A DNA stretch of 64,000 bases from Alphaproteobacteria bacterium (GCA_026710105.1 JAPORR010000028.1:13633-77632), one strand, 5' to 3'; shown: positions 13,680-64,000, counted from the stretch's first letter. Translations and numbers: made by a program. The notes: a model not told the origin generated them from the sequence alone.

Positions 13680-14453
13680 ATGATCCGTATCGCCGGCGTC
13701 TCGAAGCGATTCGGCGGCGTGGTGGCTGTTGACGGCGTGAACCTTGAGATCGCGGAGGGCTCGATCACGGGGTTGATCGGCCCGAACGGTGCCGGCAAGA
13801 CGACGCTTTTCAACCTGATCGCCGGCGCGCTCGCGCCGGACGCGGGACGGATATTCCTCGGCGGCGAGGAAATCACCGGCCTCCCGCCGCACGAATTATT
13901 CCATCGCGGCTTGCTCCGGACCTTCCAGATCGCGCATGAGTTCTCCTCGCTCACGCTCCGCGAGAACCTGATGACCACGCTCGCGTGCCAGACCGGGGAG
14001 AGCCTGCTGGGGGCGTGGCTCAAGCCGACCAAGGTCCGCGAGGAAGAGCGCACCAATCGGGAGAGGGCCGATGAGGTGATTGACTTTCTCGGCCTCGGCC
14101 CCGTCGCCGACGAGCGGGCGGGCAATCTTTCGGGCGGCCAGAAGAAGCTCCTGGAGCTCGGCCGGACGATGATGGTCGATGCCCGCATCGTGCTGCTGGA
14201 CGAGGTCGGCGCCGGCGTCAACCGCACGCTGCTCCGCCGGATAACCGAGTCCATCCTCCGTCTCAATCTCGAGCGCGGCTACACCTTCTGCATGATCGAG
14301 CACGACATGGAGTTCATCGCCCGGCTCTGCGACCCGGTGATCGTGATGGCGGAAGGCCGTGTGCTGACCGAAGGCCCCGCCGACCGGGTCATGGTGGACG
14401 AGGCCGTGATCGAAGCCTATCTCGGCCGCGGCGGACGGACGGCGGCCTCGTGA
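13680..14453 (+). CDS. livG: branched-chain amino acid ABC transporter ATP-binding protein
   Basis: GLIGPNGAGKTTLFN Walker A, LSGGQ signature, LivG-type C-terminus. Confidence 0.85.
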   Translation: MIRIAGVSKRFGGVVAVDGVNLEIAEGSITGLIGPNGAGKTTLFNLIAGALAPDAGRIFLGGEEITGLPPHELFHRGLLRTFQIAHEFSSLTLRENLMTTLACQTGESLLGAWLKPTKVREEERTNRERADEVIDFLGLGPVADERAGNLSGGQKKLLELGRTMMVDARIVLLDEVGAGVNRTLLRRITESILRLNLERGYTFCMIEHDMEFIARLCDPVIVMAEGRVLTEGPADRVMVDEAVIEAYLGRGGRTAAS

Positions 14454-14473: not shown

Positions 14474-15154
14474 ATGACGGGCGGCTATGGCGGCGCCGAC
14501 ATCATTCGCGGCTGCGATCTCGCCGCGGAACGGGGCGAGATCGCCGTCATCGTCGGCCCCAACGGGGCGGGCAAATCCACGGCGATGAAGGCGCTGCTCG
14601 GCGTCGCGCGGCTCCGCTCCGGCAGCGTGCGGCTCGGCGGTGAGGACATTACCGCGCTCTCACCCCAAGACCGGGTCGGGCGCGGCATGGCCTTCGTGCC
14701 GCAGACCGACAATGTGTTCGCCACCCTGACAGTGCGCGAAAACCTGGAGATGGGCGCGTTCCTGCGGCGCAGCGGCGTTGCCCGGACTATGGAGCGGGTC
14801 TTCGATCTGTTCCCGGCCGTACGTGAGAACCGGGACCGGCAGGCGGGCGCGCTTTCGGGCGGCCAGCGCCAGCAGGTGGCCATCGGCCGCGCGCTGATGA
14901 CGGAGCCCGCCGCGCTGCTGCTCGACGAGCCGACGGCCGGCGTCTCGCCGATCGTGATGGACGACTTGTTCGAACGCATGCTGGAGATCCGCAGCGCGGG
15001 CGTCGCTATACTGATGGCCGAGCAGAACGCCCGTCAGGCGCTCGCCATTGCCGACCGGGGCTATGTGCTCGTGACCGGCCAGAACCGCTTCGCTGACACC
15101 GGCGCCGCATTGCTCGCCAACCCGGAAATGCGCCGGTCCTTCCTCGGAGGCTGA
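14474..15154 (+). CDS. livF: branched-chain amino acid ABC transporter ATP-binding protein
   Basis: GPNGAGKSTAMKAL Walker A, LSGGQRQQVAIGRAL; the ATG at 14474 has an AGGTGAGG SD. Confidence 0.85.
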   Translation: MTGGYGGADIIRGCDLAAERGEIAVIVGPNGAGKSTAMKALLGVARLRSGSVRLGGEDITALSPQDRVGRGMAFVPQTDNVFATLTVRENLEMGAFLRRSGVARTMERVFDLFPAVRENRDRQAGALSGGQRQQVAIGRALMTEPAALLLDEPTAGVSPIVMDDLFERMLEIRSAGVAILMAEQNARQALAIADRGYVLVTGQNRFADTGAALLANPEMRRSFLGG

Positions 15155-16174: not shown

Positions 16175-17529
16175 CGCCGGCGCTCAGAAACGGCGCGGCC
16201 GCCGCCATCGTCGGAGCCGCGCTCATGGCGGTGGGGTTCGGCCAGTCCTGGTCTCTGGCGCTCGCGGTTCTGAATCTCTGCCTGATCTCCGCGCTCATGT
16301 CGCTCGCGGTCAATATCCAGTGGGGATATGCGGGTCTGTTCAATATCGGCGTCATGGGGTTCGCGGCGCTGGGCGGGCTTGCAGGCGTCTTGGTCTCCCG
16401 GCCGCCCGTGCCGGCCGCCTGGGCGGCGGGCGGCGTGGGACTTTTCATCGCCTTGCTCATTCTCATCGCGGCGGGGGGCCTCGCGCTGGCGCTGGCCCGC
16501 CATCTGCGGCGAAGCCGCTGGCGCATGCTGGCGATCGCGATCGTCATGCTCGCCGGCCTGCTGGGCGCGCGGGCCTTCTTCGATCCGGCGACGGACGCCA
16601 TTGAGGCGGTGGAGCCTGCCAAGACCGGCTATCTCGGCGGCCTCGGCCTGCCGATTGTCCTCTCCTGGTTCGCGGGCGGGCTGCTCGCCGCCGGGGCCGC
16701 GTTCGTCATCGGGCGAATCGCGCTCGGCCTGCGCTCGGACTATTTCGCCATCGCCACGCTCGGCATTTCCGAAATCGTCATCGCCGTGCTGAAGAACGAG
16801 GACTGGCTGACGCGGGGGGTGAAGAACGTGACCGGGCTCGACCGCCCGGTTCCCTATGAGGTGGACCTGCAGCAAGACCCTCGTTTCGTCGATCTCGTCG
16901 CCGTGCTGCACAGCCGAAGCCTGGAGGCGCTGACGGGCGCGGCGCATGAAGCCGCGCTCCGCGAGTTGACGGTCCAGTTCTCCAGCCTGTTCGTGAAGCT
17001 CTGCTATGCGGGCCTCTTCCTGGCCGCGTTGGCGGTCGTGTTCTGGCTGTCAGAGCGCGCGCTGCATTCCCCCTGGGGCCGGATGATGCGCGCCATCCGC
17101 GACAACGAGATCGCCGCGGGAGCGATAGGCAAGGACGTGACCCGCCGCCACCGGCAGGTCTTCATTCTGGGCTCGGCCGTCATCGGCGTCGCGGGCGCCA
17201 TGCTGACCACACTGGACGGCCAGTTCACCCCGGCGGGCTACCAGCCGCTCCGCTTCACCTTCCTCATCTGGGTCATGGTGGTGGTCGGCGGCTCCGGCAA
17301 CAATCTGGGCGCGGTGCTGGGCGGCTTCCTCATCTGGTTCGTCTGGATCGAGGCGGAGCCCGCGGGCCTCTGGCTGATGCAGGCGCTGACCTCCGGCCTG
17401 CCCGCGGACAGTGCCGTCCGCGCCCACCTACTCGAAAGCGCCGCGCATATGCGCCCGCTGGTCATGGGTGTCATCCTGCTGCTCGTCATGCGCTTCCGTC
17501 CGCGCGGCCTTATCCCCGCCGACAGGTAG
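16171..17529 (+). CDS. livM: branched-chain amino acid ABC transporter permease
   Basis: LivM-like permease with NIQWGYAGLFNIG; 4-nt overlap with livH. Confidence 0.8.
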   Translation: MTPALRNGAAAAIVGAALMAVGFGQSWSLALAVLNLCLISALMSLAVNIQWGYAGLFNIGVMGFAALGGLAGVLVSRPPVPAAWAAGGVGLFIALLILIAAGGLALALARHLRRSRWRMLAIAIVMLAGLLGARAFFDPATDAIEAVEPAKTGYLGGLGLPIVLSWFAGGLLAAGAAFVIGRIALGLRSDYFAIATLGISEIVIAVLKNEDWLTRGVKNVTGLDRPVPYEVDLQQDPRFVDLVAVLHSRSLEALTGAAHEAALRELTVQFSSLFVKLCYAGLFLAALAVVFWLSERALHSPWGRMMRAIRDNEIAAGAIGKDVTRRHRQVFILGSAVIGVAGAMLTTLDGQFTPAGYQPLRFTFLIWVMVVVGGSGNNLGAVLGGFLIWFVWIEAEPAGLWLMQALTSGLPADSAVRAHLLESAAHMRPLVMGVILLLVMRFRPRGLIPADR

Positions 17530-48583: not shown

Positions 48584-49948
48584 TCAGTCGTCATCCACCT
48601 CCGGCATCAGCACGAATTCCGGATAGGCCTCAATGCCGAGTTCAGCGGCGTCCTGGCCGAGTTCCTCGACCGTATGGGAGACACGCGCACCTATTGTGTA
48701 TTTAATGCCGAGCCAGACGAGCAGCGACGTAGCGAAGACGAAGGCGCCAACGGCGAGCACCCCGGTAAGCTGAACCAACACATCGCCGCCGGCGGCGATG
48801 CACACCGCCATCGTGCCCCAGACACCGGCGAACAGATGCGCCGGGATCGCGCCCACGACATCGTCGATCTTCAGGGCCTCCAACACCTTCAGGCCCGCCG
48901 TGGTGACCGAGCCGCCGATCAGGCCGATCACGACTGCCCAGTAATGCTCGACGAGGTCCGGCCCGGCGGTAATGGCGACCAGACCCCCTATGGCGCCATT
49001 GAGGCCCGCCAGCAGGTCGGTGCGTCCGAATAACGGCCGCGCGAGCGCCAGCGCCGCCAGCACGCCGCCAGCGGCGGCAAGATTGGTGTTGGCGAGGATA
49101 TTGGCGAGCGCCACGACATCGGCTGCGCCGCCAAGCGCCAGTTGCGAGCCGCCATTGAAGCCGAACCAACCCATCCAGAGGATGAACACACCAAGCGTCA
49201 CGGCCGGCACATTGGAGGGCGGCGTGGCCTTGGCGGAGCCGTTCGCACGGAACTTGTTGCGGCGCGGCCCGACGATCAACGCGCCGGCGAGCGCCGCCCA
49301 GCCGCCGGTCGAGTGGACGATGGTGGAGCCGGCGAAATCCTGAAAGCCCATGGCGTCGAGCCAGCCGCCGCCCCAGGTCCAGGCGCCGACGACGGGATAG
49401 ATGAGGGCGGTCAATATGGCGATGAAGAGGAAGAACGAGACCAGCTTGACCCGCTCCGCCAGCGCTCCAGAGACGATCGAGGCGGTGGTGGCCACGAAGA
49501 CCATTTGGAAGAACCAGTCGGACATGGTGGCATAGCCATTGCTGACCACGGCCTCGACCTGTTCGGGCGCGGCGTCCGCGGCCGTCAGCAGGGCGATTTC
49601 CTCGGCCGTTGTGCCGTAGAGGAAGGAGAAAGTCCCGATCCAGCCGCCATCCTCGACACCGACATACATGAGGTTGTAGCCGATGAAATAGAAGGTGAGC
49701 CCGGCAATGGCATAGAGGCCGATATTCTTCAGACAGATGACCGAGGCGTTCTTGGTGCGCACCGAGCCTGCCTCGAGCATGGTGAAGCCGGCGCACATCC
49801 ACATCACCAGCACGCCCCAGACGAGGAAGGCGAAGCTGTCGAGGACGAATTTCATCTCCGCTCCGGGCGCGGCGGCCGCGGCGGCATCCGGATATAGCAT
49901 GACGAAGGCCCCGCCCAGAAGGGCGAGTGCTGCCATTGTCCGCGCCAT
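48584..49948 (-). CDS. amtB: ammonium transporter
   Basis: Signal-like N-terminus MARTMAALALLGGA, Amt signature FAGSTIVHSTGGWAALAGALIVGPR, eleven TM helices; start at 49948. Confidence 0.85.
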   Translation of the reverse strand: MARTMAALALLGGAFVMLYPDAAAAAAPGAEMKFVLDSFAFLVWGVLVMWMCAGFTMLEAGSVRTKNASVICLKNIGLYAIAGLTFYFIGYNLMYVGVEDGGWIGTFSFLYGTTAEEIALLTAADAAPEQVEAVVSNGYATMSDWFFQMVFVATTASIVSGALAERVKLVSFFLFIAILTALIYPVVGAWTWGGGWLDAMGFQDFAGSTIVHSTGGWAALAGALIVGPRRNKFRANGSAKATPPSNVPAVTLGVFILWMGWFGFNGGSQLALGGAADVVALANILANTNLAAAGGVLAALALARPLFGRTDLLAGLNGAIGGLVAITAGPDLVEHYWAVVIGLIGGSVTTAGLKVLEALKIDDVVGAIPAHLFAGVWGTMAVCIAAGGDVLVQLTGVLAVGAFVFATSLLVWLGIKYTIGARVSHTVEELGQDAAELGIEAYPEFVLMPEVDDD

Positions 49949-50089
49949 TGAGACAGACAGGCCTGGGGCGCGTCCGTGCTCTTTTGGAAGATGAAATTGT
50001 CCTGCTGCCTGCATTACGCGTGTTCCTCGCTCGACGAGCCCTTTAGACCCCTGTATCGCTGCTTTGACGGATTGTCCTGCCAAATATAT

Positions 50090-50400
50090 AGACCTATATC
50101 CGTGACTAGCATCCGGTTTCGGGCTTGCTCTTGTTCGTGCTTTATCCCAATATGCGTGGTGAGGGTGCCCGTGACCGCCCTCGCCCGACCGCTTATGCTC
50201 TGGAGCGGCCACCTATGCCTTTGATAGAGACCCACCGCCAGCTTGTCTACCTGCTGGTGCAGCGCCAACTGGCGGCGTCTGGAAGGGCTGCTTGAAGCAG
50301 AGCGCCAGCTCTACAATGCGGCGCTTGAGGAGCGCATCGACTGCTCTCGCAAGACAGGGAAGGGCCACCGGAAGCAGCGGCCGCCCCCATCCCGTATTCG
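50090..50400 (+). mobile_element. left arm of a ~300-bp imperfect inverted repeat containing a frameshifted 5' fragment of an IS200/IS605-family tnpB (orfB)-like gene
   Basis: The reverse complement of 57420-57713 aligns with this arm at high identity, e.g. ctatatccgtgact..catccggtttcgg and gatagagacccaccgccagcttgtctacc...ggaagggctgcttgaagcagagcgccagctctacaatgc. The encoded ..YLLVQRQLAA / LEGLLEAERQLYNAALEERIDCSRKTGKG resembles the TnpB N-terminus (RLYP..Q..L....G..RFVYN..L..R...Y...GKG). Confidence 0.5.
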
Positions 50401-50481
50401 TCAAGTCGCTCTATAGTTTCTACACAAGCTAAGTCCCATACTGATATAAGCTGGAGCCCCGAAGTGGGAGGGGGCTGTGCT

Positions 50482-52560
50482 ATGGGCTGGCGGATCGGTG
50501 TGGATATCGGCGGCACCTTCACTGATGTTGCGGTGCTGGACGAGGAGAGTGGGCGTGCCGGCATCGCCAAGGTGCCGACCACGCCCCGTGATTTCGGCGC
50601 CGCTGTGGTCGATGGCATAGGGGCGGCGATGCGCGACCACGGCATCGGGCCTGAGTCGGTCTCCCTCGTCTCCCACGCCACCACCGTTGTCACCAATGCG
50701 CTGCTGGAGGAGAAGGGCGCCGATATCGCGCTCATCGCGACCGAGGGGTTCCGCGATGTGCTGGAGCTCCGGCGCTCGGCCCGCGCGGACCTCTACGACC
50801 TCTTCCAGAACGCGCCGGCTGTGTTAGTGCCGCGCCGCCGGCGCTTCGAGCTGCGGGAACGGATCGACGCCCAGGGCGAAGTCGTGACGCCTCTCGACGA
50901 AGCCGGGCTCGACGCGGTGGTCGCGCGTATTCACGAGCTCGGTGTGGAGGCGGTGGCCGTCTGCCTCATGTTTTCCTTCCTGAACGACGCGCATGAGCGC
51001 CGTGTGGGCGACCGGCTCCGCGCCGCCCTTCCCGGCCTGCCGGTCTTCCTCTCCAGTGAGGTGCTGCCCGAAATCCGCGAGTTCGAGCGCACCAGCACCA
51101 CCGCGGTCTGTGCCTATGTCGGGCCGGTTCTGGCTTCCTATCTGGACCGGCTGGAGGGGGCGCTTGCCGGGCTCGGCCTGCCCTCGCTCTACGTAATGGG
51201 TTCGAATGGCGGCGTATTCGATGTGCCCGAGGCGCTGAAGATGCCGGCGGCAGTGGTCGAATCAGGACCTGCTGCCGGGGTCATCGCCGCACAGCGCATG
51301 GGCCGGCAGCTCGGCCGGCCCAACCTCATCTCCTTCGACATGGGTGGCACCACGGCCAAGGCAAGCTTGATCGAGAACGGCCGCATCGAGACCACCTCCG
51401 ATTACGAGGTCGGCGGCGAAGGCAATGTCGGGCGCTGGCTTCACGGCACCGGCCATCCCATCAGGGTGCCGGTGATTGACCTCGCGGAAGTGAGCGCAGG
51501 TGGCGGCAGCATCGCCTGGCTCGATCCGGGCGGCGCGCTCCGGGTTGGACCGCAAAGCGCGGGCGCAGAACCTGGTCCCGCTTGCTACCGACAGGGCGGC
51601 GCGCGGCCCACCGTGACGGACGCCAATGTCGTGCTGGGCTATCTCAGCCGCAAGCACTTGCTGGGTGGGCGGCTGCCCATCGACGCGGCGGCCTCGGAGA
51701 TGGCGATCCGCAAGCATATCGCGGATCCGCTCGGCCAGGATGTGGCGCAAGCTGCTGCCGGCATCCTGCGGGTCGTCAACAACAGCATGGCGGAGGCGCT
51801 GCGCATCGTCTCGGTGGAGCGCGGGCACGACGCACGCGAATTCTCGCTCGCCGCCTTTGGGGGCGCTGGCCCCGTCCATGCCGCAGCGCTGGCGGAGGAG
51901 CTCGGCATTGCGGAGGTGATCGTACCGCCGATCCCGGGCGGGTTTTCTGCCCTCGGCCTGGTCGCGACGGATCTTCGCCGCGACTATGCTCGCACCTTCT
52001 ACGCGCGGATCGACGAGGCCGATCCGCGCGTGCTCGACCAGCGCCTTGGGGAGCTGGAAGCAGCAGCACGTGCCATGCTGCGGAATGCCGGCCTGCCGGA
52101 GGCCGACTGTGCCATCGAACGGTCCGCCGACTGCCGCTATGCCAGACAGGCCTATGAGCTGACCGCGCCACTCGGCCTCGGCCCCGTGACCCACGCCCTT
52201 CTGGAGGCACTCGCCGACGCGTTCCATGAGCGGCATCTGCGCACTTACGGCCACAAGAACCCCGATGAGCCGGTGCAGATGGTGAATATCCGCGTGACCG
52301 CGACGGGCCGGTTGCCGGGCGTGGCGTTCCATGCGGATGCCGAGGCGCCGCCCGCCGCCGGGGAACCACAACGCGAGGTGTGGTGGTTCGGTGAGCCGGT
52401 GCGCTGCCCCGTTATCGCCCGGGGCGCTTTGCCCGCGGGCGCTGAGGGCCACCCGGGCCCGATCATCGTGGAGGAGATGGACTGCACAACCGTCGTGCCG
52501 CCCGGCTGGCGGGCTCGGCGCGACGAGCACGGATTCATCCTGGTGACGAGGAGTGCGTGA
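50482..52560 (+). CDS. hyuA: hydantoinase/oxoprolinase family protein, A subunit (HyuA-like)
   Basis: RIGVDIGGTFTDVAVLD N-terminus and a second sugar-kinase-like ISFDMGGTTAKASLI motif. The ATG at 50482 has a GGGAGGGGG SD. Confidence 0.85.
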   Translation: MGWRIGVDIGGTFTDVAVLDEESGRAGIAKVPTTPRDFGAAVVDGIGAAMRDHGIGPESVSLVSHATTVVTNALLEEKGADIALIATEGFRDVLELRRSARADLYDLFQNAPAVLVPRRRRFELRERIDAQGEVVTPLDEAGLDAVVARIHELGVEAVAVCLMFSFLNDAHERRVGDRLRAALPGLPVFLSSEVLPEIREFERTSTTAVCAYVGPVLASYLDRLEGALAGLGLPSLYVMGSNGGVFDVPEALKMPAAVVESGPAAGVIAAQRMGRQLGRPNLISFDMGGTTAKASLIENGRIETTSDYEVGGEGNVGRWLHGTGHPIRVPVIDLAEVSAGGGSIAWLDPGGALRVGPQSAGAEPGPACYRQGGARPTVTDANVVLGYLSRKHLLGGRLPIDAAASEMAIRKHIADPLGQDVAQAAAGILRVVNNSMAEALRIVSVERGHDAREFSLAAFGGAGPVHAAALAEELGIAEVIVPPIPGGFSALGLVATDLRRDYARTFYARIDEADPRVLDQRLGELEAAARAMLRNAGLPEADCAIERSADCRYARQAYELTAPLGLGPVTHALLEALADAFHERHLRTYGHKNPDEPVQMVNIRVTATGRLPGVAFHADAEAPPAAGEPQREVWWFGEPVRCPVIARGALPAGAEGHPGPIIVEEMDCTTVVPPGWRARRDEHGFILVTRSA

Positions 52561-52561
52561 T

Positions 52562-54352
52562 ATGGCTGCTGCCACGAAGACCGATGCCGCCACCTTCGAG
52601 GTCGTCAAGAACAGCCTGTATGCGGTCGCCGCGGAAATGAAGGTGGTACTCGCCAAGACGGCCTATTCCCCCATCCTGAAGGCGGCGGGGGACTATTCTT
52701 GCGGCGTGTTCGACGACCGGGGCGAGATGGTGGCTCAGGGCCCAGATCTGCCGATCCATCTGGGTTCCATGCCGGATGCCGTGCGTGCGGTGGTGCGCGC
52801 CTGGGAGGAGATCGAGCCGGGCGATGTGTTCGTCCACAACGACCCCTATTTCGGTGGCTCGCATCTGCCGGACGTGAATGTTGTCTCGCCCGCTTTCGTG
52901 GACGGCGCGCTGCTCGGCTTCTGCTGCGTGCGCGCCCACTGGCCGGATATCGGCAGCGCCACTCCTGGTAGCTATGGCGCGGTGACGGACATCTATGGCG
53001 AGGGACTGCGCCTGCCGCCGGTGCGCATTCACCGAGGCGGGGTCGTCAACCGCGATGTGGAGGACATGATCTTCGCCAATGTCCGCACCCCGGACGAGCG
53101 CCGGGGCGACCTGCGCGCCCAGATTGCGGCCAACCGCCGAGCCTCCGAGCGCCTGGCCGCGCTTGCCGGCAAATATGGTGCCGGCACCCTCAGGCGCATC
53201 ATGCAGGAGGTGATGGACTACTCCGAGGCGATGATGCGTACGCTGCTGCGCGACATCCCGGATGGGGAAGGTGCGTTCGAGGATTTTTGCGACGGGGATG
53301 GCATCGCCGGCTCGCATCAGGACGAAACCTTCGACATCAGGCTGCGCATCATCAAGCAGGGCGATGGGGTGAGAGTGGATTTCGAGGGTTCTGACCCGCA
53401 GGTCGCCGGGCCGATGAACGCGCCGCTCTCGGTCACCGCCTCGGGCGTGTTCGCGGCGCTGAAGATGGTGATAGACTCGGCGGGCGTCGTGCCGCCCAAT
53501 TCCGGCGCCTGGCGCCCCGTCAAGGTGCTTGCGCCCGAAGGCTCGGTGGTGAACGCGCAATATCCGGCCCCGGTCGTCTATGCCAATCACGAGATGTCGC
53601 ACCGGATCTGCGACATGGTGTTCGGCGCGCTGGCGGTGCTCGTTCCGGACCGGGTGATGGCCTGCTCCCAGGGCACCTCGGCTGTGCTGACGCTTGGCGG
53701 TACCGACTACCGCACAGGAGAGCGCTATGTCAGCTACGAGACGATCAAGGGCGGTTTCGGCGCTCGCCCAGACCGCGACGGCATCAGCGCGGTGGCGAGC
53801 GGCATTTCCAATACGATGAACACGCCGGTGGAGCTCATCGAAATGAGCTTTCCGGTGCGGGTCGAGTCCTACGAGCTGCGGCCTGATTCCGGCGGCGCGG
53901 GCCGTTGGCGGGGCGGGCTCGGCACGCGCCGGACCTGGCGGATCCTGGAGCGCGACGCGCACGCCGCCGTGTGTTGCGAGCGCACCAAGTCCCCGCCCTT
54001 CGGCATAGAAGGCGGGGCGGCGGGCGCACCTGCCCGCATCTCGGTCGTCGATCCAGACGGGACGGAGCGCCTGCTGAACAGCAAGGGCTCCTTCGAGGCG
54101 CCGGCTGGCGCGCTGGTGGTGTTCGACGTGCCGGGCTCGGGCGGCTACGGCCCGCCGGCGGAACGCGACCCGGCCCGGCTCCGGGAAGATCTGGCGGACG
54201 GCTATGTCACGCCCGAAGGCGCTCGCCGCGATTACGACGCGGCCGCCCTTGATGCCCTCTCCGGCACCCGCCCTGGCGCCCGGCTCTCTGTCAGAGCGCC
54301 AGAGCTTTCTGCAGCGCCGGCCGTTCCTTCAGCCGATCCACATAGGCCTTAA
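52562..54352 (+). CDS. hyuB: hydantoinase B / oxoprolinase family protein (HyuB-like)
   Basis: DPATFEVVKNSLYAVAAEM, AKTAYSPILKAAGDYSCGVFD and NDPYFGGSHLPD HyuB motifs; begins 2 nt after the hyuA stop. Confidence 0.85.
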   Translation: MAAATKTDAATFEVVKNSLYAVAAEMKVVLAKTAYSPILKAAGDYSCGVFDDRGEMVAQGPDLPIHLGSMPDAVRAVVRAWEEIEPGDVFVHNDPYFGGSHLPDVNVVSPAFVDGALLGFCCVRAHWPDIGSATPGSYGAVTDIYGEGLRLPPVRIHRGGVVNRDVEDMIFANVRTPDERRGDLRAQIAANRRASERLAALAGKYGAGTLRRIMQEVMDYSEAMMRTLLRDIPDGEGAFEDFCDGDGIAGSHQDETFDIRLRIIKQGDGVRVDFEGSDPQVAGPMNAPLSVTASGVFAALKMVIDSAGVVPPNSGAWRPVKVLAPEGSVVNAQYPAPVVYANHEMSHRICDMVFGALAVLVPDRVMACSQGTSAVLTLGGTDYRTGERYVSYETIKGGFGARPDRDGISAVASGISNTMNTPVELIEMSFPVRVESYELRPDSGGAGRWRGGLGTRRTWRILERDAHAAVCCERTKSPPFGIEGGAAGAPARISVVDPDGTERLLNSKGSFEAPAGALVVFDVPGSGGYGPPAERDPARLREDLADGYVTPEGARRDYDAAALDALSGTRPGARLSVRAPELSAAPAVPSADPHRP

Positions 54353-54899
54353 GGTGCGGCATGTCCGAGTAATCGACGCCGAAACGTTCGCACATCAGGC
54401 AGGCATGGCCGGTGATCGTGTCGGCGGCCGTGAACGCGCCCGCGAGATAGGCGCGGCCTTCCATATGGGTGTCGACCGCTTGGACTGTGCGCGTCATCAG
54501 CCTAAGAGCGCGCGTGGCGTGCTCTTCCGACCGGCGCTCCGGCTTGAGAAGGATGGTCTCGACCACATAATTGTTCATGGGCCCCATGATCATGCCTTCG
54601 CCGTAATGCAGCCACTGCAAGTAGTCCGGGAAGACGGGTGACGAGGCGGCGGGCACTAGCCGTCCACCGCCGTGGCGCGCGACCAGATATTCGGCGATGG
54701 CCGCGCTTTCGAAAATTCGCACCTCGCCGTCCTCAAGAACCGGCACGCGGCCGTTCGGACTGATCGCCAGGAACTCGGGCGCGCGCATGGCGGGGTCGCC
54801 GAGCTTGTCGAACCGCGCCAGCTCGAAGTCGAGCCCCAACTCGAACATCAGCCAGGCCGAACGGACGGCACGGGTATTGGGCGCAAAATAGAGCTTCAT
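54291..54899 (-). CDS. glutathione S-transferase
   Basis: MKLYFAPNTRAVRSAWLMFELGLDFE thioredoxin-fold N-terminus, SPNGRVPVLEDG, GST C-domain. Confidence 0.8.
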   Translation of the reverse strand: MKLYFAPNTRAVRSAWLMFELGLDFELARFDKLGDPAMRAPEFLAISPNGRVPVLEDGEVRIFESAAIAEYLVARHGGGRLVPAASSPVFPDYLQWLHYGEGMIMGPMNNYVVETILLKPERRSEEHATRALRLMTRTVQAVDTHMEGRAYLAGAFTAADTITGHACLMCERFGVDYSDMPHLKAYVDRLKERPALQKALAL

Positions 54900-54936
54900 T
54901 TTGGCTCCCGTTATTCCCTGTTGTGCTGTCTGCGGT

Positions 54937-56175
54937 CTATGCCGTGGTTCGGGCGGCACGGGGCGGCCAGTCTACCTGGCGGCGCATCTCCAGCCGCGCG
55001 ATCTGCTGGCGGTGAACCTCGTCCGGCCCGTCGGCGAAGCGCAGTGCGCGCATTCTCGACCACATGAATGACAGCTTGAAGGCCTGGCTCATTGCTCCGC
55101 CGCCATGAGCCTGCATAGCGTCATCAATCACCTGCAGCGCCATGTTCGGTGCCGCTACCTTTATCATGGCGATTTCCTGCCGTGCCGCCTTGTTGCCGAC
55201 CGTGTCCATCATATGGGCGGCCTTGAGCGTCAGCAGGCGGCACATCTCGATATTGATGCGCGCATCGGCCACCCGCTCGCGGAAATTGTCCCGATCGCCG
55301 ACAGCCGTGCCCCAAGTCACCCGCTCGGTACCGCGCCGGCACATCATCTCCAACGCGCGCTCGGCCACGCCGATGATACGCATGCAATGGTGGATGCGGC
55401 CGGGGCCGAGGCGACCCTGCGCGATCTCGAAGCCGCGGCCTTCGCCGAGCAGCATGTTCGAGGCCGGCACGCGCACATCCCTGAAGTCCACCTCGCCATG
55501 ACCGTGCGGCGCATCGTCGAACCCCATCACATTCAGCATCCGCACGACGTCTATGCCGGGCGCATCGGTTGGCACCAGGATCATCGATTGCTGGTTGTAG
55601 CGCGGGCCGTCTGGGGCGGTCTTGCCCATGAAGATCAGGACCTTGCAACGTGGGTCGCCAATGCCCGAAGTCCACCATTTACGCCCGTTGATGACATAGT
55701 CGTTGCCGTCGCGCTCGATCCGGCTCTCGATATTGGTGGCATCGGAGGAGGCGACGCGTGGCTCTGTCATGGCAAAGGCAGAGCGGATCTCGCCTGCCAA
55801 CAGCGGCTCCAGCCATTGTTTCTTCTGCTCCGGCGTGCCATAGCGTTCCAGTACCTCCATATTTCCGGTGTCCGGTGCCGAGCAATTGAACACTTCTGGG
55901 GCCCAGTTGATCCGGCCCATGACTTCGCAGACCGGGGCGTATTCGAGGTTGGTCAGGCCGCCGCCGAGCTCGCTTTCGGGCAGGAACAGGTTCCAGAGGC
56001 CCTCCCCGCGCGCCTTTTCCTTCAGCTCCTCCAGGACAGGGATGACCTTCCAGCGGTTGCCGCCTTCCTCGAGCTGCTCGTAATAGACATCCTCATTGGG
56101 ATAAACGTAGCGGTCCATGAAGTCCTGGACGCGGCCGACCAGTTCCTTGGTCCGATCGTTGAAATCAAAGTCCAT
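54937..56175 (-). CDS. acyl-CoA dehydrogenase family protein
   Basis: [21 protein letters not shown] signature and a C-terminal ACAD helical domain; start [12 protein letters not shown] at 56175. Confidence 0.85.
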
Positions 56176-56251
56176 ACGGGCGGTTCCCTCTCCGGCGAGC
56201 GCAATCGGTCGGGGCGACACTAGCGCAAGACGGCTCTAGCCGGAAGCCGGT

Positions 56252-57262
56252 TCAAACCCTGCCGGCAAGACCCTGCAGGGTGGTGTAGAGCGCGTCCTCG
56301 ACCGTTATGCCCTCTTCGGCTGTCCGGGCGCGGGCAGCGAGGCGCCGGTCACCCGGCAGCCGGGCCTCGCCATTGGCAAGCAGTCGCTCGAACAGCGCCT
56401 CGACATGGGCGAAGAATTCCGGTCCCGCCAGTCGCCCGGGGTCGATGGCGATGAAGGACTGGGCCCCGTTGGAGGGGCCGCCGTCGCGCTTGTGGTCGGC
56501 GGCGCTCTCATAGCCGAAGAACCCGCCGGAGAGACCCCCGGTCATCAGTTCCACCATGAGCGCGATCGAAGAGCCCTTGTAGCCCCCGAAGGGCAGTTGC
56601 ACGCCTGCCAGTATGGCTGCCGGGTCCGTCGTCGGCTGTCCGTCCGAGCCGAGGCCGGTGCCGGCGGGCACCGTATGGCCGTCCCGCGCCGCAATCTGGA
56701 TCTCACCCCGCGCCATCGCCGCCGACGCCTGGTCGAAGACCATCGGCGCCCTACCACCACCGCGCGGACAGGCAAAGGCCATCGGATTGGTGCCGAACAG
56801 CGCTTCCGTGCCGCCGGCGGGCGCCATGAAGCTCTGCGAGTTGACGAAGGTGAACGCGACCAGACCCGCCTCCGCCAAAGGCTCGATGTCAGGCCAGAGT
56901 GCGGCGAAATTGAATGAGTTTCGGATCGTCATGCAGGCGATGCCCTGCTCGTGCGCCTTGTCGGCCAGCGCGCCACGGCCGCGCGCAATGGCAAGCGGCG
57001 CAAAGCCCCGGCGCGCATCCACGGCGACCAACCCCGGCGCGGCATCGACGATCTCCGGTTCGGCCTGCGGGTCGGCGGCCCCGCTGTTCACCGATGCAAC
57101 ATAACCCGGTAGCCGGAACAGCCCGTGGCTCTTGCAGCCATCGGCCTCGGCGCGGGTGATATGGTCGGCGACCGCCTCCGCATTGGCGTGCGAGACACCG
57201 GCGTGGGACAGGGCGTCAAACGCGAGAGCGCGGCATTCCTTGAGCGAGATCGCAGCGGGCAT
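56252..57262 (-). CDS. Ldh_2 family (malate/L-lactate/Pyr2C-reductase type) dehydrogenase
   Basis: GCKSHGLFRLPGYV and GFAPLAIARG blocks typical of the Ldh_2 (MDH2/AllD/DpkA) family. Confidence 0.75.
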   Translation of the reverse strand: MPAAISLKECRALAFDALSHAGVSHANAEAVADHITRAEADGCKSHGLFRLPGYVASVNSGAADPQAEPEIVDAAPGLVAVDARRGFAPLAIARGRGALADKAHEQGIACMTIRNSFNFAALWPDIEPLAEAGLVAFTFVNSQSFMAPAGGTEALFGTNPMAFACPRGGGRAPMVFDQASAAMARGEIQIAARDGHTVPAGTGLGSDGQPTTDPAAILAGVQLPFGGYKGSSIALMVELMTGGLSGGFFGYESAADHKRDGGPSNGAQSFIAIDPGRLAGPEFFAHVEALFERLLANGEARLPGDRRLAARARTAEEGITVEDALYTTLQGLAGRV

Positions 57263-57329
57263 GGCCGGTCTCCTCCGAGGTAGTTGTGGAGCCTAGTCTG
57301 CAGCATAGACCCAGCCCCGGGCGATGAGG

Positions 57330-57713
57330 AAGCTAGCTGTGGGGGCACATCCTGTTTTGCTCGGGACTCAGAAGCTCCGGGCAGGGGGCAGGTTCCTGTC
57401 CCATGCCGGCATCGCTATTCAGGCCATGTAGGAGTGGAACGAAAGCAAATCGATAGCAGTCGATCCGCTCTTCGATCGCTGCATTGTAGAGCTGGCGCTC
57501 TGCTTCAAGCAGCCCTTCCAGGTGCAGCCAGTTGGCGCGGCGGCAGCAGACGGTAGACAAGCTGGCGGTGGGTCTCTATCAGGGCCATGAAGGGTGTCCC
57601 AGAGCCTGAGCGTTTGGGTAAGGCTGCTTACAGGCCCTTGCCACGCAAGTTGGGGCAAAACGGGAACGAAGGCAAGGCCGAAACCGGATGCCAGTCACGG
57701 ATATAAGTCCCTA
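57330..57713 (-). mobile_element. right arm of the inverted repeat with a second frameshifted tnpB-like 5' fragment, oriented inward
   Basis: Reverse complement of the left arm. It encodes MALIETHRQLVYRLLPPRQLAA / LEGLLEAERQLYNAAIEERIDCYRF; both arms share the same in-frame TGA and frameshift position and differ by a 3-nt indel. The arm ends exactly at the fbiC ATG. Confidence 0.5.
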
Positions 57714-60134
57714 ATGGATCCTCTGCACTATATTGATCGTCGCCCGGAGCCCGACGAGGCGCTAGCGCTAGCCGATTACGATGCGCTTGAGGCCCTAATG
57801 GGCGCGGCGGCCCGGCTGCGCGACTGGTTGCACGGGCCGCGCGTCAGCTATTCGCGTAAGGTGTTTATTCCGCTGACGCATCTCTGCCGAGATGTCTGTC
57901 ATTACTGCACCTTCGCGAAGCCGCCGCGCCGGGGCGAACCGGCCTATATGACGCCAGAGCGGGTGCTCGAAGTGGCGCGGGCAGGGGCGGCGGCCGGCTG
58001 CAAGGAGGCGCTGTTCACACTCGGCGACAAGCCGGAGCGGCGCTACCGCGCGGCGCGCGCGGTCTTGGCTGGGTTCGGTTACAGGACGACGCTCGATTAC
58101 CTCAAGGCGATGGCGCAGCTTGTCTTCGATGAGACCGGCCTGCTGCCGCATCTCAATCCTGGCCTGGCGACGGTGGAGGAGCTAGCCGGCCTGCGCCGCG
58201 TCTCGGCCTCGATGGGCATCATGCTGGAAAGCGCCTCGGACCGGCTGTGCGCAAAGGGCATGCCGCATTACGGCTCGCCGGACAAGCAGCCGGCGCGTCG
58301 GCTTGAGACCATCCGGCTTGCGGCCGCAGCGAAGGTGCCGTTCACCTCCGGCATCCTGATCGGCATCGGCGAGACGCGGCGCGAGCGCATCGAAGCTCTG
58401 CTGGCGCTGCGCGAGATCGACGATGCCACGGGCGCGGTGCAGGAGATCATCGTCCAAAATTTCCGTGCCAAGCCCGGCACCAAAATGGCCGCCGCGCCGG
58501 AGCCGGAGCTGGAGGAACTGCTCTGGACCATTGCCGTGGCCCGCCTGGTTTTCGGCCCGGCCGCCTCGATTCAGGCGCCGCCCAACCTCTCACCGGGCGC
58601 GCTTGGACCCATCCTGGCCGCTGGCATCAACGATTGGGGTGGTGTCTCGCCGGTGACACCGGATTTCGTCAACCCCGAAGCCCCCTGGCCACATCTGGAG
58701 ACGTTAGCGCACGAGACGGCCGCGGCAGGCAAGCAACTGGTCGAGCGGCTGACAGCCTATCCGCGCTATCTGGACGAGGAGTGGTTGGCGCCGGCCATGC
58801 TGACGCGGGCCCTGCAGCTCTGTGATGCGGACGGCCTGGCGCGGCCGGACGACTGGTCGCCGGGTGCACTAACACCACCGGCACCGATTCCGCGGCGCGG
58901 CGGGACGGGCGCCGATGTCTCGGCGCTGCTCACGGAAGCCGAAGCGGGTGCCGCCCTCGGCGAAGCTGACATCATACGATTGTTCCAGGCCCGCGACGAG
59001 GAGTTCCACGCCGTTGCCGAAGCCGCCGACAGGATGCGGGCGCGGCTCGTAGGCGACGAAGTCACCTATGTGGTGAACCGCAATATCAACTACACCAATG
59101 TCTGCTATTTCAAATGCCAGTTCTGTGCCTTCTCGAAGGGTCGGCTTTCCGAGAACCTGCGCGGCCGCCCCTATGACCTCCACCTCGGCGAAATCCGTCG
59201 CCGCGTTGCCGAGGCTTGGGAACGCGGCGCGACCGAGGTCTGCATGCAGGGGGGTATTCACCCCGATTATACGGGCCGCACCTATCTCGATATCCTGGAC
59301 GCGGTGAAGGCGGCGGCGCCCGATATCCATGTCCATGCCTTCACACCGCTTGAGGTGTTCCAGGGGGCGCATACGCTGGGCGTCTCCGTCGAAGCCTTCC
59401 TGCGGGACCTGAAAGCCGCCGGCCTCGGCACGCTGCCCGGCACGGCGGCGGAGGTGCTGGACGACGAGGTGCGCCGTATCATCTGCCCGGACAAGATCGA
59501 TACGCAGCAATGGCTGGATGTCATGGAAACGGCGCACGGGCTCGGTATCCGGTCTACGGCGACGATCATGTACGGCCATGTCGAGCGCCCGGTCCACTGG
59601 GCACGCCATCTCCTCCGGCTGCGCGCCTTGCAGCAGCGCACTGGCGGGTTTACCGAGTTCGTGCCGTTACCCTTTGTCCACATGGAAGCCCCGATCTATC
59701 TCAAGGGGCGCGCACGCCGGGGGCCGACCTTCCGCGAGGCGGTGTTGATGCACGCTGTCGCGCGCCTTGTGCTGGCGCCGCACTTCGTCAATATCCAGAC
59801 TTCCTGGGTCAAGATGGGGCCGGAGGGCGTTGCGGCGGCCCTGGGAGCCGGCGCCAACGATCTCGGTGGCACACTGATGAACGAAAGCATCACCCGGGCC
59901 GCTGGCACGGTCCACGGCCAGGAGATGGAGCCGCATCGCATGGAGGAGACAATCCACGCCGCGGGCCGCCAGCCGGCCCAGCGCATGACAGATTACAGCC
60001 GCCCACCCGAGCGGCAGGTGCTGCGGTCCCGACAGGCCGCGCCGCTCGCCGAAATCGTGGAAACACCCACCCGCAAATACGAACACGCCGCCCCCAGATC
60101 TCTCTACCGCCCAGGCTTGTCCGCCGCCGGGTGA
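57714..60134 (+). CDS. fbiC: bifunctional FO synthase (7,8-didemethyl-8-hydroxy-5-deazariboflavin synthase, CofG+CofH fused)
   Basis: Two radical-SAM halves with cysteine boxes CRDVCHYCTF and CYFKCQFCAF; 806 aa; start MDPLHYIDRR at 57714. Confidence 0.85.
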   Translation: MDPLHYIDRRPEPDEALALADYDALEALMGAAARLRDWLHGPRVSYSRKVFIPLTHLCRDVCHYCTFAKPPRRGEPAYMTPERVLEVARAGAAAGCKEALFTLGDKPERRYRAARAVLAGFGYRTTLDYLKAMAQLVFDETGLLPHLNPGLATVEELAGLRRVSASMGIMLESASDRLCAKGMPHYGSPDKQPARRLETIRLAAAAKVPFTSGILIGIGETRRERIEALLALREIDDATGAVQEIIVQNFRAKPGTKMAAAPEPELEELLWTIAVARLVFGPAASIQAPPNLSPGALGPILAAGINDWGGVSPVTPDFVNPEAPWPHLETLAHETAAAGKQLVERLTAYPRYLDEEWLAPAMLTRALQLCDADGLARPDDWSPGALTPPAPIPRRGGTGADVSALLTEAEAGAALGEADIIRLFQARDEEFHAVAEAADRMRARLVGDEVTYVVNRNINYTNVCYFKCQFCAFSKGRLSENLRGRPYDLHLGEIRRRVAEAWERGATEVCMQGGIHPDYTGRTYLDILDAVKAAAPDIHVHAFTPLEVFQGAHTLGVSVEAFLRDLKAAGLGTLPGTAAEVLDDEVRRIICPDKIDTQQWLDVMETAHGLGIRSTATIMYGHVERPVHWARHLLRLRALQQRTGGFTEFVPLPFVHMEAPIYLKGRARRGPTFREAVLMHAVARLVLAPHFVNIQTSWVKMGPEGVAAALGAGANDLGGTLMNESITRAAGTVHGQEMEPHRMEETIHAAGRQPAQRMTDYSRPPERQVLRSRQAAPLAEIVETPTRKYEHAAPRSLYRPGLSAAG

Positions 60135-60269: not shown

Positions 60270-60606
60270 AGGCAGGTCCATCGAATCGTGCAACAGGCGC
60301 AGAATATCAATTGTCGGTGGGATATCCGACGATCCAGCCCGGTCAATACCAGATGCCGCCCCGTCGTCCCTTGCGCGCGACCTGAAGAACCATCAGGCCT
60401 TCGGCAATGTCATTTCGTTCCCTCACGCCGGCAACATGGGGACCGGTTGCAAGCGCGTCGATGGTCTCGGTCAGTATCTCAGCGTAGACGCGCGCCTGGA
60501 CCTCTCCGAACCGCTCCGCCGTCCACCGGACGATGTTCCGGAAATCGGGGCTTCGGCCGCAGATGTCAAACGGATCCGCCATTGGCGGCCGGTCATCGAT
60601 CGCCAT
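60270..60606 (-). pseudogene. parE: ParE/RelE-family toxin gene, apparently frameshifted
   Basis: The ATG at 60606 overlaps the parD 3' end by 14 nt including its stop. Frame 0 gives ..FRNIVRWTAERFGEVQARVYAEILTETIDALATGPHVAGVRERNDIAEGL.. (ParE helical half) and stops at 60343. The ParE-like C-terminus ..IDILRLLHDSMDL continues in the +1 frame. Confidence 0.5.
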
Positions 60607-60898
60607 CTGCACGCGATCTTGGATCACCAAGAGCTTCATCGGCCAGAGCCGACAGGCGGTCATGCAACAATTCCGTAGTGTCGAAGGCCTGGAAACGGCC
60701 CGCCGCGATATCTGTGATCCCCGTATCGACTGCCTCGCGCATACCCTTCAGGCGAAGATCGTCCAGGGTCTCCCGCCGCTCGACCAGTCTGAGGCCTTCG
60801 CGGATAACTTCGCTGGCATTCTGGTAGCGGCCGGAATCGACCAGCCTGGTAACGAAATCCGCCTGACGGTCCGTCAAGACGACATTGCGCGTCGGCAT
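60593..60898 (-). CDS. parD: ParD-family (COG3609, RHH) antitoxin
   Basis: VVLTDRQADFVTRLVDSGRYQNASEVIREGLRLVERRE matches ParD antitoxins. The start is 60898 or 60928. Confidence 0.7.
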   Translation of the reverse strand: MPTRNVVLTDRQADFVTRLVDSGRYQNASEVIREGLRLVERRETLDDLRLKGMREAVDTGITDIAAGRFQAFDTTELLHDRLSALADEALGDPRSRADGDR

Positions 60899-60922
60899 GT
60901 CCAGAGTCCCTAAACTTGGCAT

Positions 60923-60937
60923 TGGCATATTATGCCA
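60923..60937. promoter_or_regulatory. perfect 7-1-7 palindrome TGGCATA-T-TATGCCA immediately upstream of parD (candidate autoregulatory operator)
   Basis: The inverted repeat was read directly; it overlaps or abuts the alternative parD start. Confidence 0.5.
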
Positions 60938-61348
60938 CAATCCGTTGCAAGGCAAGGCATTCGGGCTTGTCCAACTGGAGGCGCGGCAAGGTTTGCGATA
61001 GACTGCGATCCCGTGCCGGACCGGTGCGAATTGACGGCAATCGGCCAGCGGGGAGACGCCGCCCATGTCCGACAATGAAGGCCCCGATTCAGTCGCCGCT
61101 GGCACGGCTGACATCATGGACAACCTGATGCCCGGCGCGGCCCCGGGTTCCCGTGAATCCACCTGCCCGGCCAACGCGCGCCACCGCCAGCAAGGTCTCG
61201 ATCTGCGCCTCGTCGAAGCGCGCCAGGTATTCGCCAAGACGCCGGCTCGAGGGCACGCGGCCAAGACCCAGCAGACGGCGACCGACCCGGTCCTCGCACA
61301 GCGTGTCAAGAGCGTTCCGTTGCCCGCCGCCCTGTAGGCACACTGTCC

Positions 61349-63538: not shown

Positions 63539-64000
63539 TCAAGGCGCGGCAGTGGGGGCTGTCAAGGACGCAACTACGGCAATCGCTTGAAGTGATCGAG
63601 CGGTAGTGCGTTTGATAGCGAAGAAGAGGTATTCATCATCCCATGCTGCTGATTGTCTTCTGACTTTGAGACTTGCCTTTGGTCGTCTTGAAGACATTGA
63701 TTGCGACATGGGGCATAGTGGCCATGTTTGGGGGTCCGTGTGCGGTTCTGAGGCTTGTGCGGAAACTATGGAGCGGCCCCAGTCCCCATCGTGGCTTACC
63801 CAGGCGCGTCTTGAGGCGACTATGGTTGGCATTGGTGGTCTCGTGCGTGTGGTCTCACGGGAGACCAATGCAACCTCGGCAGGGACTTCTGGTTGCCCTT
63901 GAGCGCCAGCAGATCATCTGCCACCCAGTCTCTGGCGCGCGGCCGAGACGAGAGGCAAGGGACGGCCATTGCCGCCCGGTTGGCCATGCACGCGAGGTCT

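Follow-up and report, generated by a model that had tools for sequence, protein, structure and literature searches.

How five genes with an accessory-metabolism flavour came to lie between two inverted repeats, and whether they form a mobile unit, is the question raised by positions 50,090-57,713 of a 64,000-nt stretch of DNA from an alphaproteobacterium (GCA_026710105.1, JAPORR010000028.1:13633-77632), the whole of which is called the window here. The repeats stand between the ammonium-transporter gene amtB and fbiC, and enclose hyuA, hyuB, a GST gene, an acyl-CoA dehydrogenase (ACAD) gene and an Ldh_2 dehydrogenase gene. A preliminary description, made from the sequence, had viewed the locus as a ~7.6-kb catabolic cassette bounded by repeats that carry inward-facing remnants of tnpB, and had suggested a composite-transposon-like unit, an invertible segment or a cargo between two decayed insertion sequences. 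Most of the evidence assembled below points elsewhere: the repeats are very probably two copies of a dispersed family of TnpB-derived miniature inverted-repeat transposable elements (MITEs) that lie beside chromosomal genes, with local rearrangement around them, rather than the ends of a mobile cassette.

The inverted repeat itself is real and far above chance. In a BLAST comparison of the window with itself, 50091-50349 aligned with 57709-57451 over 262 columns with six gaps (E-values of 1.6e-61 to 2.3e-59), the aligned arm measuring 259 nt, and a repeat search together with the self-comparison identified this as the sole sizeable repeat in the 64 kb.

50091..50349, + strand: alignable arm of the left copy, 79.8% identical to 57709-57451.
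57451..57709, - strand: alignable arm of the right copy, 79.8% identical to 50091-50349.

This identity lies above the threshold of about 70% set in the preliminary description, and the three shared segments quoted there each occur once per arm, with no match in 100 shuffles. The arm length had been given as about 300 nt; the alignable part is shorter, at about 260 nt, and each element reaches 349 nt once its terminal motifs are counted. The longest perfect runs are of 41 nt (50279-50319) and 29 nt (from 50222). Identity is unevenly distributed: the tnpB part (50216-50349) reaches 87%, against 72% for the outer non-coding stretch (50089-50215; Fisher p = 0.0025). The only other repeat in the window is a direct one (14114-14219 and 14839-14944; 108 columns and 73% identity in the self-BLAST), which coincides with a double match of an ABC-transporter ATPase query and probably represents two ATPase domains or paralogues.

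That the arms are mobile-element remnants bearing inward-facing tnpB 5' fragments, as had been proposed, was confirmed by nucleotide matches, by translated searches and by orientation. The arm DNA matches genes annotated as 'RNA-guided endonuclease TnpB' on two Bosea plasmids (82.6% identity, E 6e-9), the match beginning at codon 17 of a 407-aa TnpB. After correction of one frameshift, the arms translate to M[AP]LIETHRQLVY..LEGLLEAERQLYNAA[LI]EERIDC[SY]R, a peptide that matches the Pfam family HTH_OrfB_IS605 with an E-value of 0.007, under the gathering score. When three full-length TnpBs were compared with the window by tblastn, only residues 13-50 were matched, and nothing resembling the RuvC or zinc-finger parts of the protein was detected. 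In the left arm, residues 14-50 of the Bosea TnpB correspond to 50264-50374 (E 1e-5); the match in the right arm covers 57539-57444 (E 8e-5).

Read from the outside inwards, each arm consists of about 125 nt devoid of an open reading frame (ORF), followed by an ATG that opens a frameshifted tnpB, of which the initial 43-52 codons are left. With their terminal motifs, both copies measure exactly 349 nt.

50089..50437, + strand: left MITE-like element, 349 nt, with its ends, a tnpB remnant and a right-end motif.
57363..57711, - strand: right MITE-like element, 349 nt, with the same sequence in the assemblies L001/L028, L004 and L029 (99.7%).

The left copy comprises a non-coding left end (50089-50215), a tnpB 5' remnant from the ATG at 50216 to about 50374 (TnpB residues ~1-52, frameshifted) and a right-end remnant, ..CGTCAAGTCGCTC..CTAAGTCCC, which finishes at 50437 and aligns with the right ends of related elements at loci L027, L028 and L045. 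In the right copy the remnant begins at the ATG at 57588 (- strand) and homology stops at 57451, at about TnpB residue 44, the left remnant reaching a few codons further (..RKTGKG). The left end of the element, GGGACTTATATCC, is intact in the right copy at 57711-57699, and the left copy begins with TAGACCTATATCC, three substitutions away. At the other side the left copy ends in ..TAAGTCCC and the right copy, more weakly, in ..TGAGTCCC, its candidate right end CTGAGTCCC being a 7/8 match located at 57363, at the same 349-nt offset. The terminal inverted repeats (TIRs) of the window elements match the termini of the full-length elements at L045 and L068 and the 3' end of the L027 tnpB. At 349 nt and without an intact transposase ORF, the copies have the dimensions of MITEs. 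The terminus of the right element is 2 nt short of the fbiC ATG (57714), while the left element starts 75 nt upstream of the called amtB start (50014) or 141 nt from the ATG at 49948. The inner end of the left element coincides exactly, in the ENA scaffold at L001, with a run of N (16906-17005) flanked by a duplicated 55-nt stretch, an artefact that the repeat introduced during assembly or scaffolding.

The arms have relatives in other genomes. A search of the repaired arm peptide against 5.8 billion proteins returned seven, all of 65-89 aa; at least four of them (P0242-P0245) are N-terminal TnpB fragments running into unrelated sequence, and P0247, possibly also P0246, appear to be contig-limited pieces of genuine TnpBs. 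Three of the four fragments could be placed on contigs of other metagenomes, in unrelated intergenic sites such as that between mfd and dsbA, and their DNA has both the tnpB 5' part and the upstream non-coding left end in common with the window arms. The point at which tnpB is cut differs within the family: after LYNAA at L025, after IDCYQ at L026 and at 65 aa at L027. The short element at L027 starts with GGGACTTAGTATAC and finishes in ..TATAAGTCCC. That contig also bears a full-length tnpB, the 3' end of which matches the final 53 nt of the short element at 98% identity and terminates in ATATAAGTCCC, about 30 nt past the tnpB stop codon. This sharing of an end indicates that the short elements are composed of a left end, a tnpB 5' fragment and a right end, and are thus internal-deletion derivatives.

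The ends of the family conform to the TIR consensus GGGA[C/A]TTATATAC ... GTATATAA[G/T]TCCC, and TIRs of 13-25 bp together with 8-bp duplications were found in eight elements. At L068, in a metagenome-assembled genome (MAG) of the Thermodesulfobacteriota, a 1257-nt element with a perfect 25-bp TIR (GGGAATTATATACATAAATCAAAAT) encodes a 397-aa TnpB (N-terminus ..LYNACLEERIDCYRKTGKG..) that scores 237 bits on the NCBIfam model guided_TnpB, IS200_TnpB being the next best model. A full-length tnpB element of 1316 nt with the same kind of ends is present in a Rhodobacterales MAG (L045 3501-4816, CBDCUM010000012.1), where it is flanked on both sides by AAATAGTA and splits an ammonium-transporter (amt) gene. 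The target duplication of the miniature copy at L025 is AAACCTAA. A sister clade of tnpB-only elements of about 1372 nt (L006, L007, L016-L024) occupies the Bosea plasmids pBSY19_1 and pANAM02 and the JGI contig Ga0209930_1000042, with seven or more copies on a single JGI contig of 775 kb, 25-bp TIRs (GGCTCTCCGGCATCTGAGGTTGATC) and five perfect 8-bp duplications (ATCTTTCG, TGGATCGA, CTTTGTTA, TTAATTAC and CTTACAGC). Throughout these full-length relatives (L068, L045 and the Bosea/JGI copies), tnpB is the sole gene between the ends. The called ATG of an outer-membrane (TolC-like) gene downstream of the L068 element overlaps the element's right end (14594-14610; ATGTATATAATTCCC), and the annotated start of this gene therefore lies inside the transposon end.

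Within the lineage of the window four copies are visible. Besides the window pair there is one upstream of yebC and another in the spacer that separates rplI from a CMAS methyltransferase gene. The preliminary description had called for a count of copies; beyond the window pair, two or more others are present in this lineage, and the family appears to be dispersed. The rplI-CMAS copy (L028 19032-19300) measures 269 nt and is located on the window's own scaffold, about 2.7 kb past window position 64000. It has the left end GGGACTTATATAC, the right end CATATAAGCCCC and a perfect 8-bp duplication, ATGCTGTT, that takes in the CMAS start codon; in relatives the rplI-CMAS spacer amounts to 44 nt only. 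The copy near yebC was found at L002 (GCA_026708705.1, JAPOUJ010000016.1), where yebC-ruvCAB takes the place of fbiC and is joined to the Ldh_2 side via a hybrid element (2128-2465). L002 2206-7382 is 99.85% identical to window 57622-52446 over 5177 nt; the outer 78 nt of the hybrid are a third sequence variant and the remainder is the right copy. L002 is either a strain with recombined copies or a chimeric contig, and in both cases reveals a third copy, upstream of yebC. Compared with L025, L026 and L027, the two window copies and the L002 hybrid all lack the same 5 nt, a deletion that shifts the frame. A degenerate 38-nt pattern from the tnpB part had no match in genome contigs; its last base excluded L025-type copies and assemblies tend to break in the repeat, so that absence is not implied. 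In metagenome contigs the same pattern retrieved only the full-length elements of the sister clade and none of the window's own family.

The termini also bear on the way in which the family moved. IS605-type and IS607-type elements are without terminal inverted repeats or target duplication (PMC3119063; PMC6188088). An IS605-type origin was dropped because the family has TIRs and 8-bp duplications, and an IS607-type origin was dropped on the same grounds, GG termini notwithstanding. The combination of TIRs and 8-bp duplications argues for mobilization in trans by a transposase making staggered cuts, unlike the Y1 (IS605) or serine (IS607) enzymes, and this transposase, cutting with an 8-bp stagger, was probably a DDE enzyme. 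TnpB lineages linked to DDE transposases with inverted repeats, including solo TnpBs thought to be mobilized in trans, have been reported (PMC10691335). No serine recombinase appears in the gene tables of the loci at which family copies were located, and a tblastn search of plasmids with the L068 TnpB returned generic TnpBs at about 35% only, with no annotated close relative or partner transposase. From their end consensus and their 8-bp duplication, we take IS1595-type and ISL3-type enzymes to be candidates, and candidates only, for the mobilizing activity. For IS1595, 8-bp duplications are described, as are 5'-GG TIRs for its Merlin relatives (PMC8101967).

Whether the genes between the elements arrived with them can be judged from the order of these genes in relatives. 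The gene content given in the preliminary description was confirmed by Pfam, and the features concerned are as follows.

48584..50014, - strand: amtB, 476 aa as called (alternative ATG at 49948), Pfam Ammonium_transp, read away from the left element.
50482-52560, + strand: hyuA, Pfam Hydantoinase_A/B.
52562-54352, + strand: hyuB, Pfam Hydantoinase_A/B.
54291-54899, - strand: GST, by Pfam.
54937-56175, - strand: ACAD, by Pfam.
56252-57262, - strand: Ldh_2 dehydrogenase, by Pfam; GST, ACAD and Ldh_2 are co-directional.
57334..57362, no strand: 29 nt separating the right element from the conserved sequence upstream of Ldh_2, with no homolog in searches.
57714..60134, + strand: fbiC, FO synthase, 806 aa, Pfam radical-SAM/CofH_C twice.

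In the closest FbiC relative (L012, 88% amino-acid identity) the order is ACAD<-Ldh_2 / ECH->fbiC, where ECH is an enoyl-CoA hydratase gene, and no repeat is present. At the nucleotide level L012 1-1380 matches window 55950-57333, and L012 from 2220 onward matches the window from 57714 onward; the 839 nt of L012 in between (1381-2219; ECH and spacers) give way in the window to 57334-57713, made up of the 29 nt, the right element and TA. Three further relatives (L008, L009 and L010; FbiC 85% identical at the amino-acid level, contigs up to 1.8 Mb) likewise have Ldh_2 / ECH->fbiC, with the same downstream genes and no repeat. The association of fbiC with Ldh_2 (and, in L012, with ACAD) therefore predates the arrival of the right element, and ECH appears to have been lost from the window lineage at the site of that element.

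The other genes have different surroundings in their relatives. The relatives of hyuAB (87-88% amino-acid identity; contigs up to 2.7 Mb) have a Rieske oxygenase gene on one side and an FMO-like gene on the other, with no GST, ACAD, Ldh_2, amtB or repeat nearby. The closest amtB relative (89% amino-acid identity), on the 3.9-Mb chromosome of an alphaproteobacterial MAG (L030), has amtB and the genes beyond it in common with the window; upstream of amtB it carries a cupin gene and mipZ, again with no repeat, and nucleotide homology ends at window 49934, about 155 nt from the left copy. The GC content of the interior, at 63-69%, is the same as that of the flanks, and no tRNA gene is present in the window. 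To judge from these sequence comparisons, the interior is a mosaic of blocks with different histories and is ordinary chromosome. The expected adjacency of amtB and fbiC where the cassette is absent did not materialize, since amtB and hyuAB stand in other contexts in relatives. A unit inserted between the two is likewise contradicted by the repeat-free relatives, in which ACAD<-Ldh_2 is already placed beside (ECH->)fbiC, and the relatives without repeats also speak against an arrangement fixed with its repeats in all of them.

Three further observations concern these genes and their neighbours. The 3' ends of hyuB and GST overlap by 62 nt (54291-54352), and HyuB has 596-599 aa here versus 582 aa in relatives; the overlap is possibly the junction of two blocks of different origin, and there is no repeat at it. 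The closest AmtB homologues other than that of L030 (63-77% amino-acid identity; loci L030-L109) occur in MAGs of many phyla, the hosts including Dehalococcoidia, Nitrospirales, Acidobacteriota, Gammaproteobacteria, Binatia and Poriferihabitaceae, which suggests horizontal sharing of the transporter within one habitat. Between fbiC and a DUF1491 gene (~60340-60940; L028 12630-13185) lie a ParD-type antitoxin gene and a partner ORF, at a place where L008 and L009 have two small unrelated ORFs.

A plausible course of events can be outlined. A tnpB-only transposon would have lost almost all of its tnpB and become a miniature, non-autonomous element, with what was left being the left end, 43-52 codons of an already frameshifted tnpB and a short right end, the last of these clear in the left copy. 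Two copies of this already defective element would then have inserted separately, in opposite orientation, into short spacers near gene starts, one upstream of amtB and the other between Ldh_2 and fbiC. The right insertion probably duplicated TAATGGAT, which contains the fbiC ATG, like the rplI-CMAS copy with the CMAS ATG. A subsequent deletion abutting the inner end of the right element may have taken ECH together with the inner copy of the duplication, and the inner part of the right copy may have been replaced in that deletion or in an earlier event. The placement of hyuAB beside amtB, which is seen only in the window lineage, would reflect a local rearrangement accompanying or following the insertions. 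Across the 6.9 kb that separate them, the copies do nothing as a unit and are at most a weak substrate for homologous recombination. The right copy would now form the 5' leader of fbiC and, the native fbiC 5' region (ECH and spacer) being gone, fbiC must on the face of this arrangement be transcribed through or from the element.

A number of observations weigh against this account. Neither window copy has an 8-bp target duplication (CAAATATA/ATACTGAT and ATCCATTA/GAGCAAAA), and the case for insertion by transposition at these exact sites therefore draws on the relatives. The right end of the right copy is the 7/8 match CTGAGTCCC, and this copy may be truncated instead; its inner 88 nt (57450-57363) align neither with the left copy nor with any other sequence compared, and blastn-short and tblastx comparisons of the inner 88-117 nt of both copies with all loci gave chance-level matches only. 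A scan for TIR pairs in 110 sequences (109 loci and the window) returned tnpB elements only, with no autonomous partner or transposase, and no full-length element with exactly the left end of the window copies was found. The relatives used for synteny are only 85-89% identical at the protein level, and the elements may have had no part in some of the differences. Lastly, the 5-nt frameshifting deletion is common to both copies, yet their tnpB part (87%) is better kept than the non-coding part (72%). The shared frameshift implies that the common ancestor of the arms was already non-coding, and simple neutral decay does not account for the excess conservation of the tnpB part, which gene conversion between the copies or a constraint at the DNA level could have caused.

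Among the alternatives, one differs from the spread of a defective element in the order of events only: two full-length tnpB elements would have inserted and each would have been reduced on site by its own internal deletion. Such decay in situ is rather unlikely. The tnpB homology ends at different codons in the two copies (~52 and ~44), their inner parts are unrelated, and other family members are cut at other points (L025, L026 and L027); repeat-mediated core deletions of TnpB elements are also documented (PMC3119063). However, the same 5-nt deletion is found in both copies and in the L002 hybrid, and this, with the equal length of 349 nt, fits the spread of a progenitor that was already defective.

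It is doubtful that the left end has been retained as a regulatory module, serving as promoter or leader for the adjacent outward-reading genes fbiC, amtB and yebC. In three copies a distance of 2-141 nt separates the left end from the start codon of a divergently oriented gene, the rplI-CMAS copy abuts the CMAS ATG with its right end, and the native fbiC 5' region (ECH and intergenic spacer) is gone. Selection against disruptive insertions would, however, lead to such short-spacer placement just as readily, in other genomes the copies are found beside stop codons or in unrelated spacers, and the ancestral divergent promoter region between Ldh_2 and ECH is still upstream. Neither region has a sigma-70-like promoter or an excess of terminators over shuffles. 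Rfam searches returned nothing for the arms in E-value mode and nothing for related elements in gathering mode, and the left end has no convincing conserved hairpin (consensus fold of -3.3 kcal/mol with a positive covariation term). A more far-reaching reading is equally doubtful, namely that a TIR-type tnpB-only lineage and its miniatures, spread across sponge-associated bacteria of several phyla, are moved by a DDE family not yet tied to TnpB (for example IS1595/Merlin-like or ISL3-like), and that the window pair is a nascent composite transposon able to move hyuAB-GST-ACAD-Ldh_2.

The idea of an invertible segment, in which recombination between the arms flips 7 kb as a switch or did so as a past event, is quite improbable. 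The perfect runs of 41 and 29 nt shared by the arms are close to the minimum length for RecA-dependent exchange, and L002 joins the Ldh_2 side to yebC via a hybrid element, as expected of recombination between copies; the arms are only 80% identical overall, however, and the L002 junction may be chimeric, produced by assembly across the repeat. Evidence from the population came from exact look-ups of the Ldh_2 and FbiC proteins, which gave contigs from at least five samples. Ldh_2-element-fbiC occurs as in the window, independently, in L001/L028, L004 and L029, while L003 spans the region from arm to arm and breaks inside both, as is usual for assemblers faced with repeats. Five independent assemblies (L001/L028, L003, L004, L005 and L029) have one orientation and no inverted isoform, and this Ldh_2-fbiC orientation is the ancestral one. 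The exchange of duplications that is the signature of inversion between copies was tested at the flanks and was not found.

Least probable, and as a past event largely refuted, is a composite transposon in which the inverted copies are the ends of a 7.6-kb unit that delivered, or could move, hyuAB-GST-ACAD-Ldh_2: the family does have TIRs and 8-bp duplications, two outward-facing left ends in inverted orientation are in principle a valid end pair for a TIR-recognizing transposase, as in Tn5 and Tn10, and the interior genes have an accessory-metabolism flavour, but ACAD-Ldh_2 is already beside ECH-fbiC in repeat-free relatives, no direct repeat or target duplication surrounds the unit (CAAATATA versus TAATGGAT), the left outer terminus is mutated at three of its first six bases, the terminal GG included, all copies of the block from the protein look-up are at this locus, save the recombinant or chimeric L002 junction, the interior carries no compositional signal and the arms contain tnpB fragments only, with no functional transposase.

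Two miniature elements beside chromosomal genes are thus the preferred explanation, and the 'catabolic cassette' is a false lead that should be neither annotated as a transposon nor used as evidence of horizontal transfer. The gene order reflects ordinary chromosomal history and rearrangement around small repeats. TnpB is usually discussed in the setting of IS605 and IS607, and the arms led to tnpB-only elements with TIRs and 8-bp duplications, and to their miniatures, in uncultured sponge-type bacteria. The defined ends and the empty and filled sites of this lineage may help to find its transposase and to define the guide-RNA boundary at the right end. In addition, copies coincide with a deletion (ECH) and with a possible recombination (the yebC junction), in keeping with repeats that reshape and fragment symbiont genomes and their assemblies.

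Like MITEs, the window elements are short (349 nt), non-coding and bounded by TIRs, seem to occur as dispersed intergenic copies and have lost the core of a longer parent, and members of their family are flanked by duplications. They differ from MITEs in that the two window copies are without target duplications and in that the parent carries tnpB and no transposase, so that the full-length element is also non-autonomous. Tn5 and Tn10 are composite transposons, and resemble the locus in having two inverted copies of one element around several kilobases of metabolic genes; the window unit, in contrast, has no flanking duplication, transposase or second location, its interior is syntenic with the flank in relatives and one of its outer termini is mutated.

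Among TnpB elements, the IS200/IS605 elements of the IS1341 group have TnpB as their only gene, as do the full-length relatives described here, but the TIRs and 8-bp duplications of the family contrast with their asymmetric ends with subterminal hairpins (PMC3119063, PMC10691335). The haloarchaeal PATEs and core-deleted IS605-type elements (IS1341-type TnpB) are similar in that TnpB elements have been cut to fused termini by internal deletion; PATEs far outnumber intact copies and keep short coding remnants (PMC3119063). These elements are without TIRs or duplication, whereas the window family has 13-25-bp TIRs and 8-bp duplications. With IS607 the family shares GG at its termini, but IS607 has a serine-recombinase TnpA and neither the TIRs nor the duplications of the window family (PMC6188088). 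The DDE-associated TnpB lineages are alike in having a solo tnpB between symmetrical inverted ends and several copies per genome, and differ in that no DDE gene was found beside any family member here (PMC10691335). A further likeness to these lineages is the short distance, no more than about 30 nt, from the 3' end of tnpB to the right end at L027, L045 and L068. IS630 makes a TA duplication, at odds with the 8 bp seen in the window family. It is the sole DDE partner named in the main text of the report on those lineages (PMC10691335). The locus as a whole is ordinary mobile-element debris; what it adds is a TnpB lineage of the type with terminal inverted repeats and target-site duplications, distinct from the IS605 and IS607 types.

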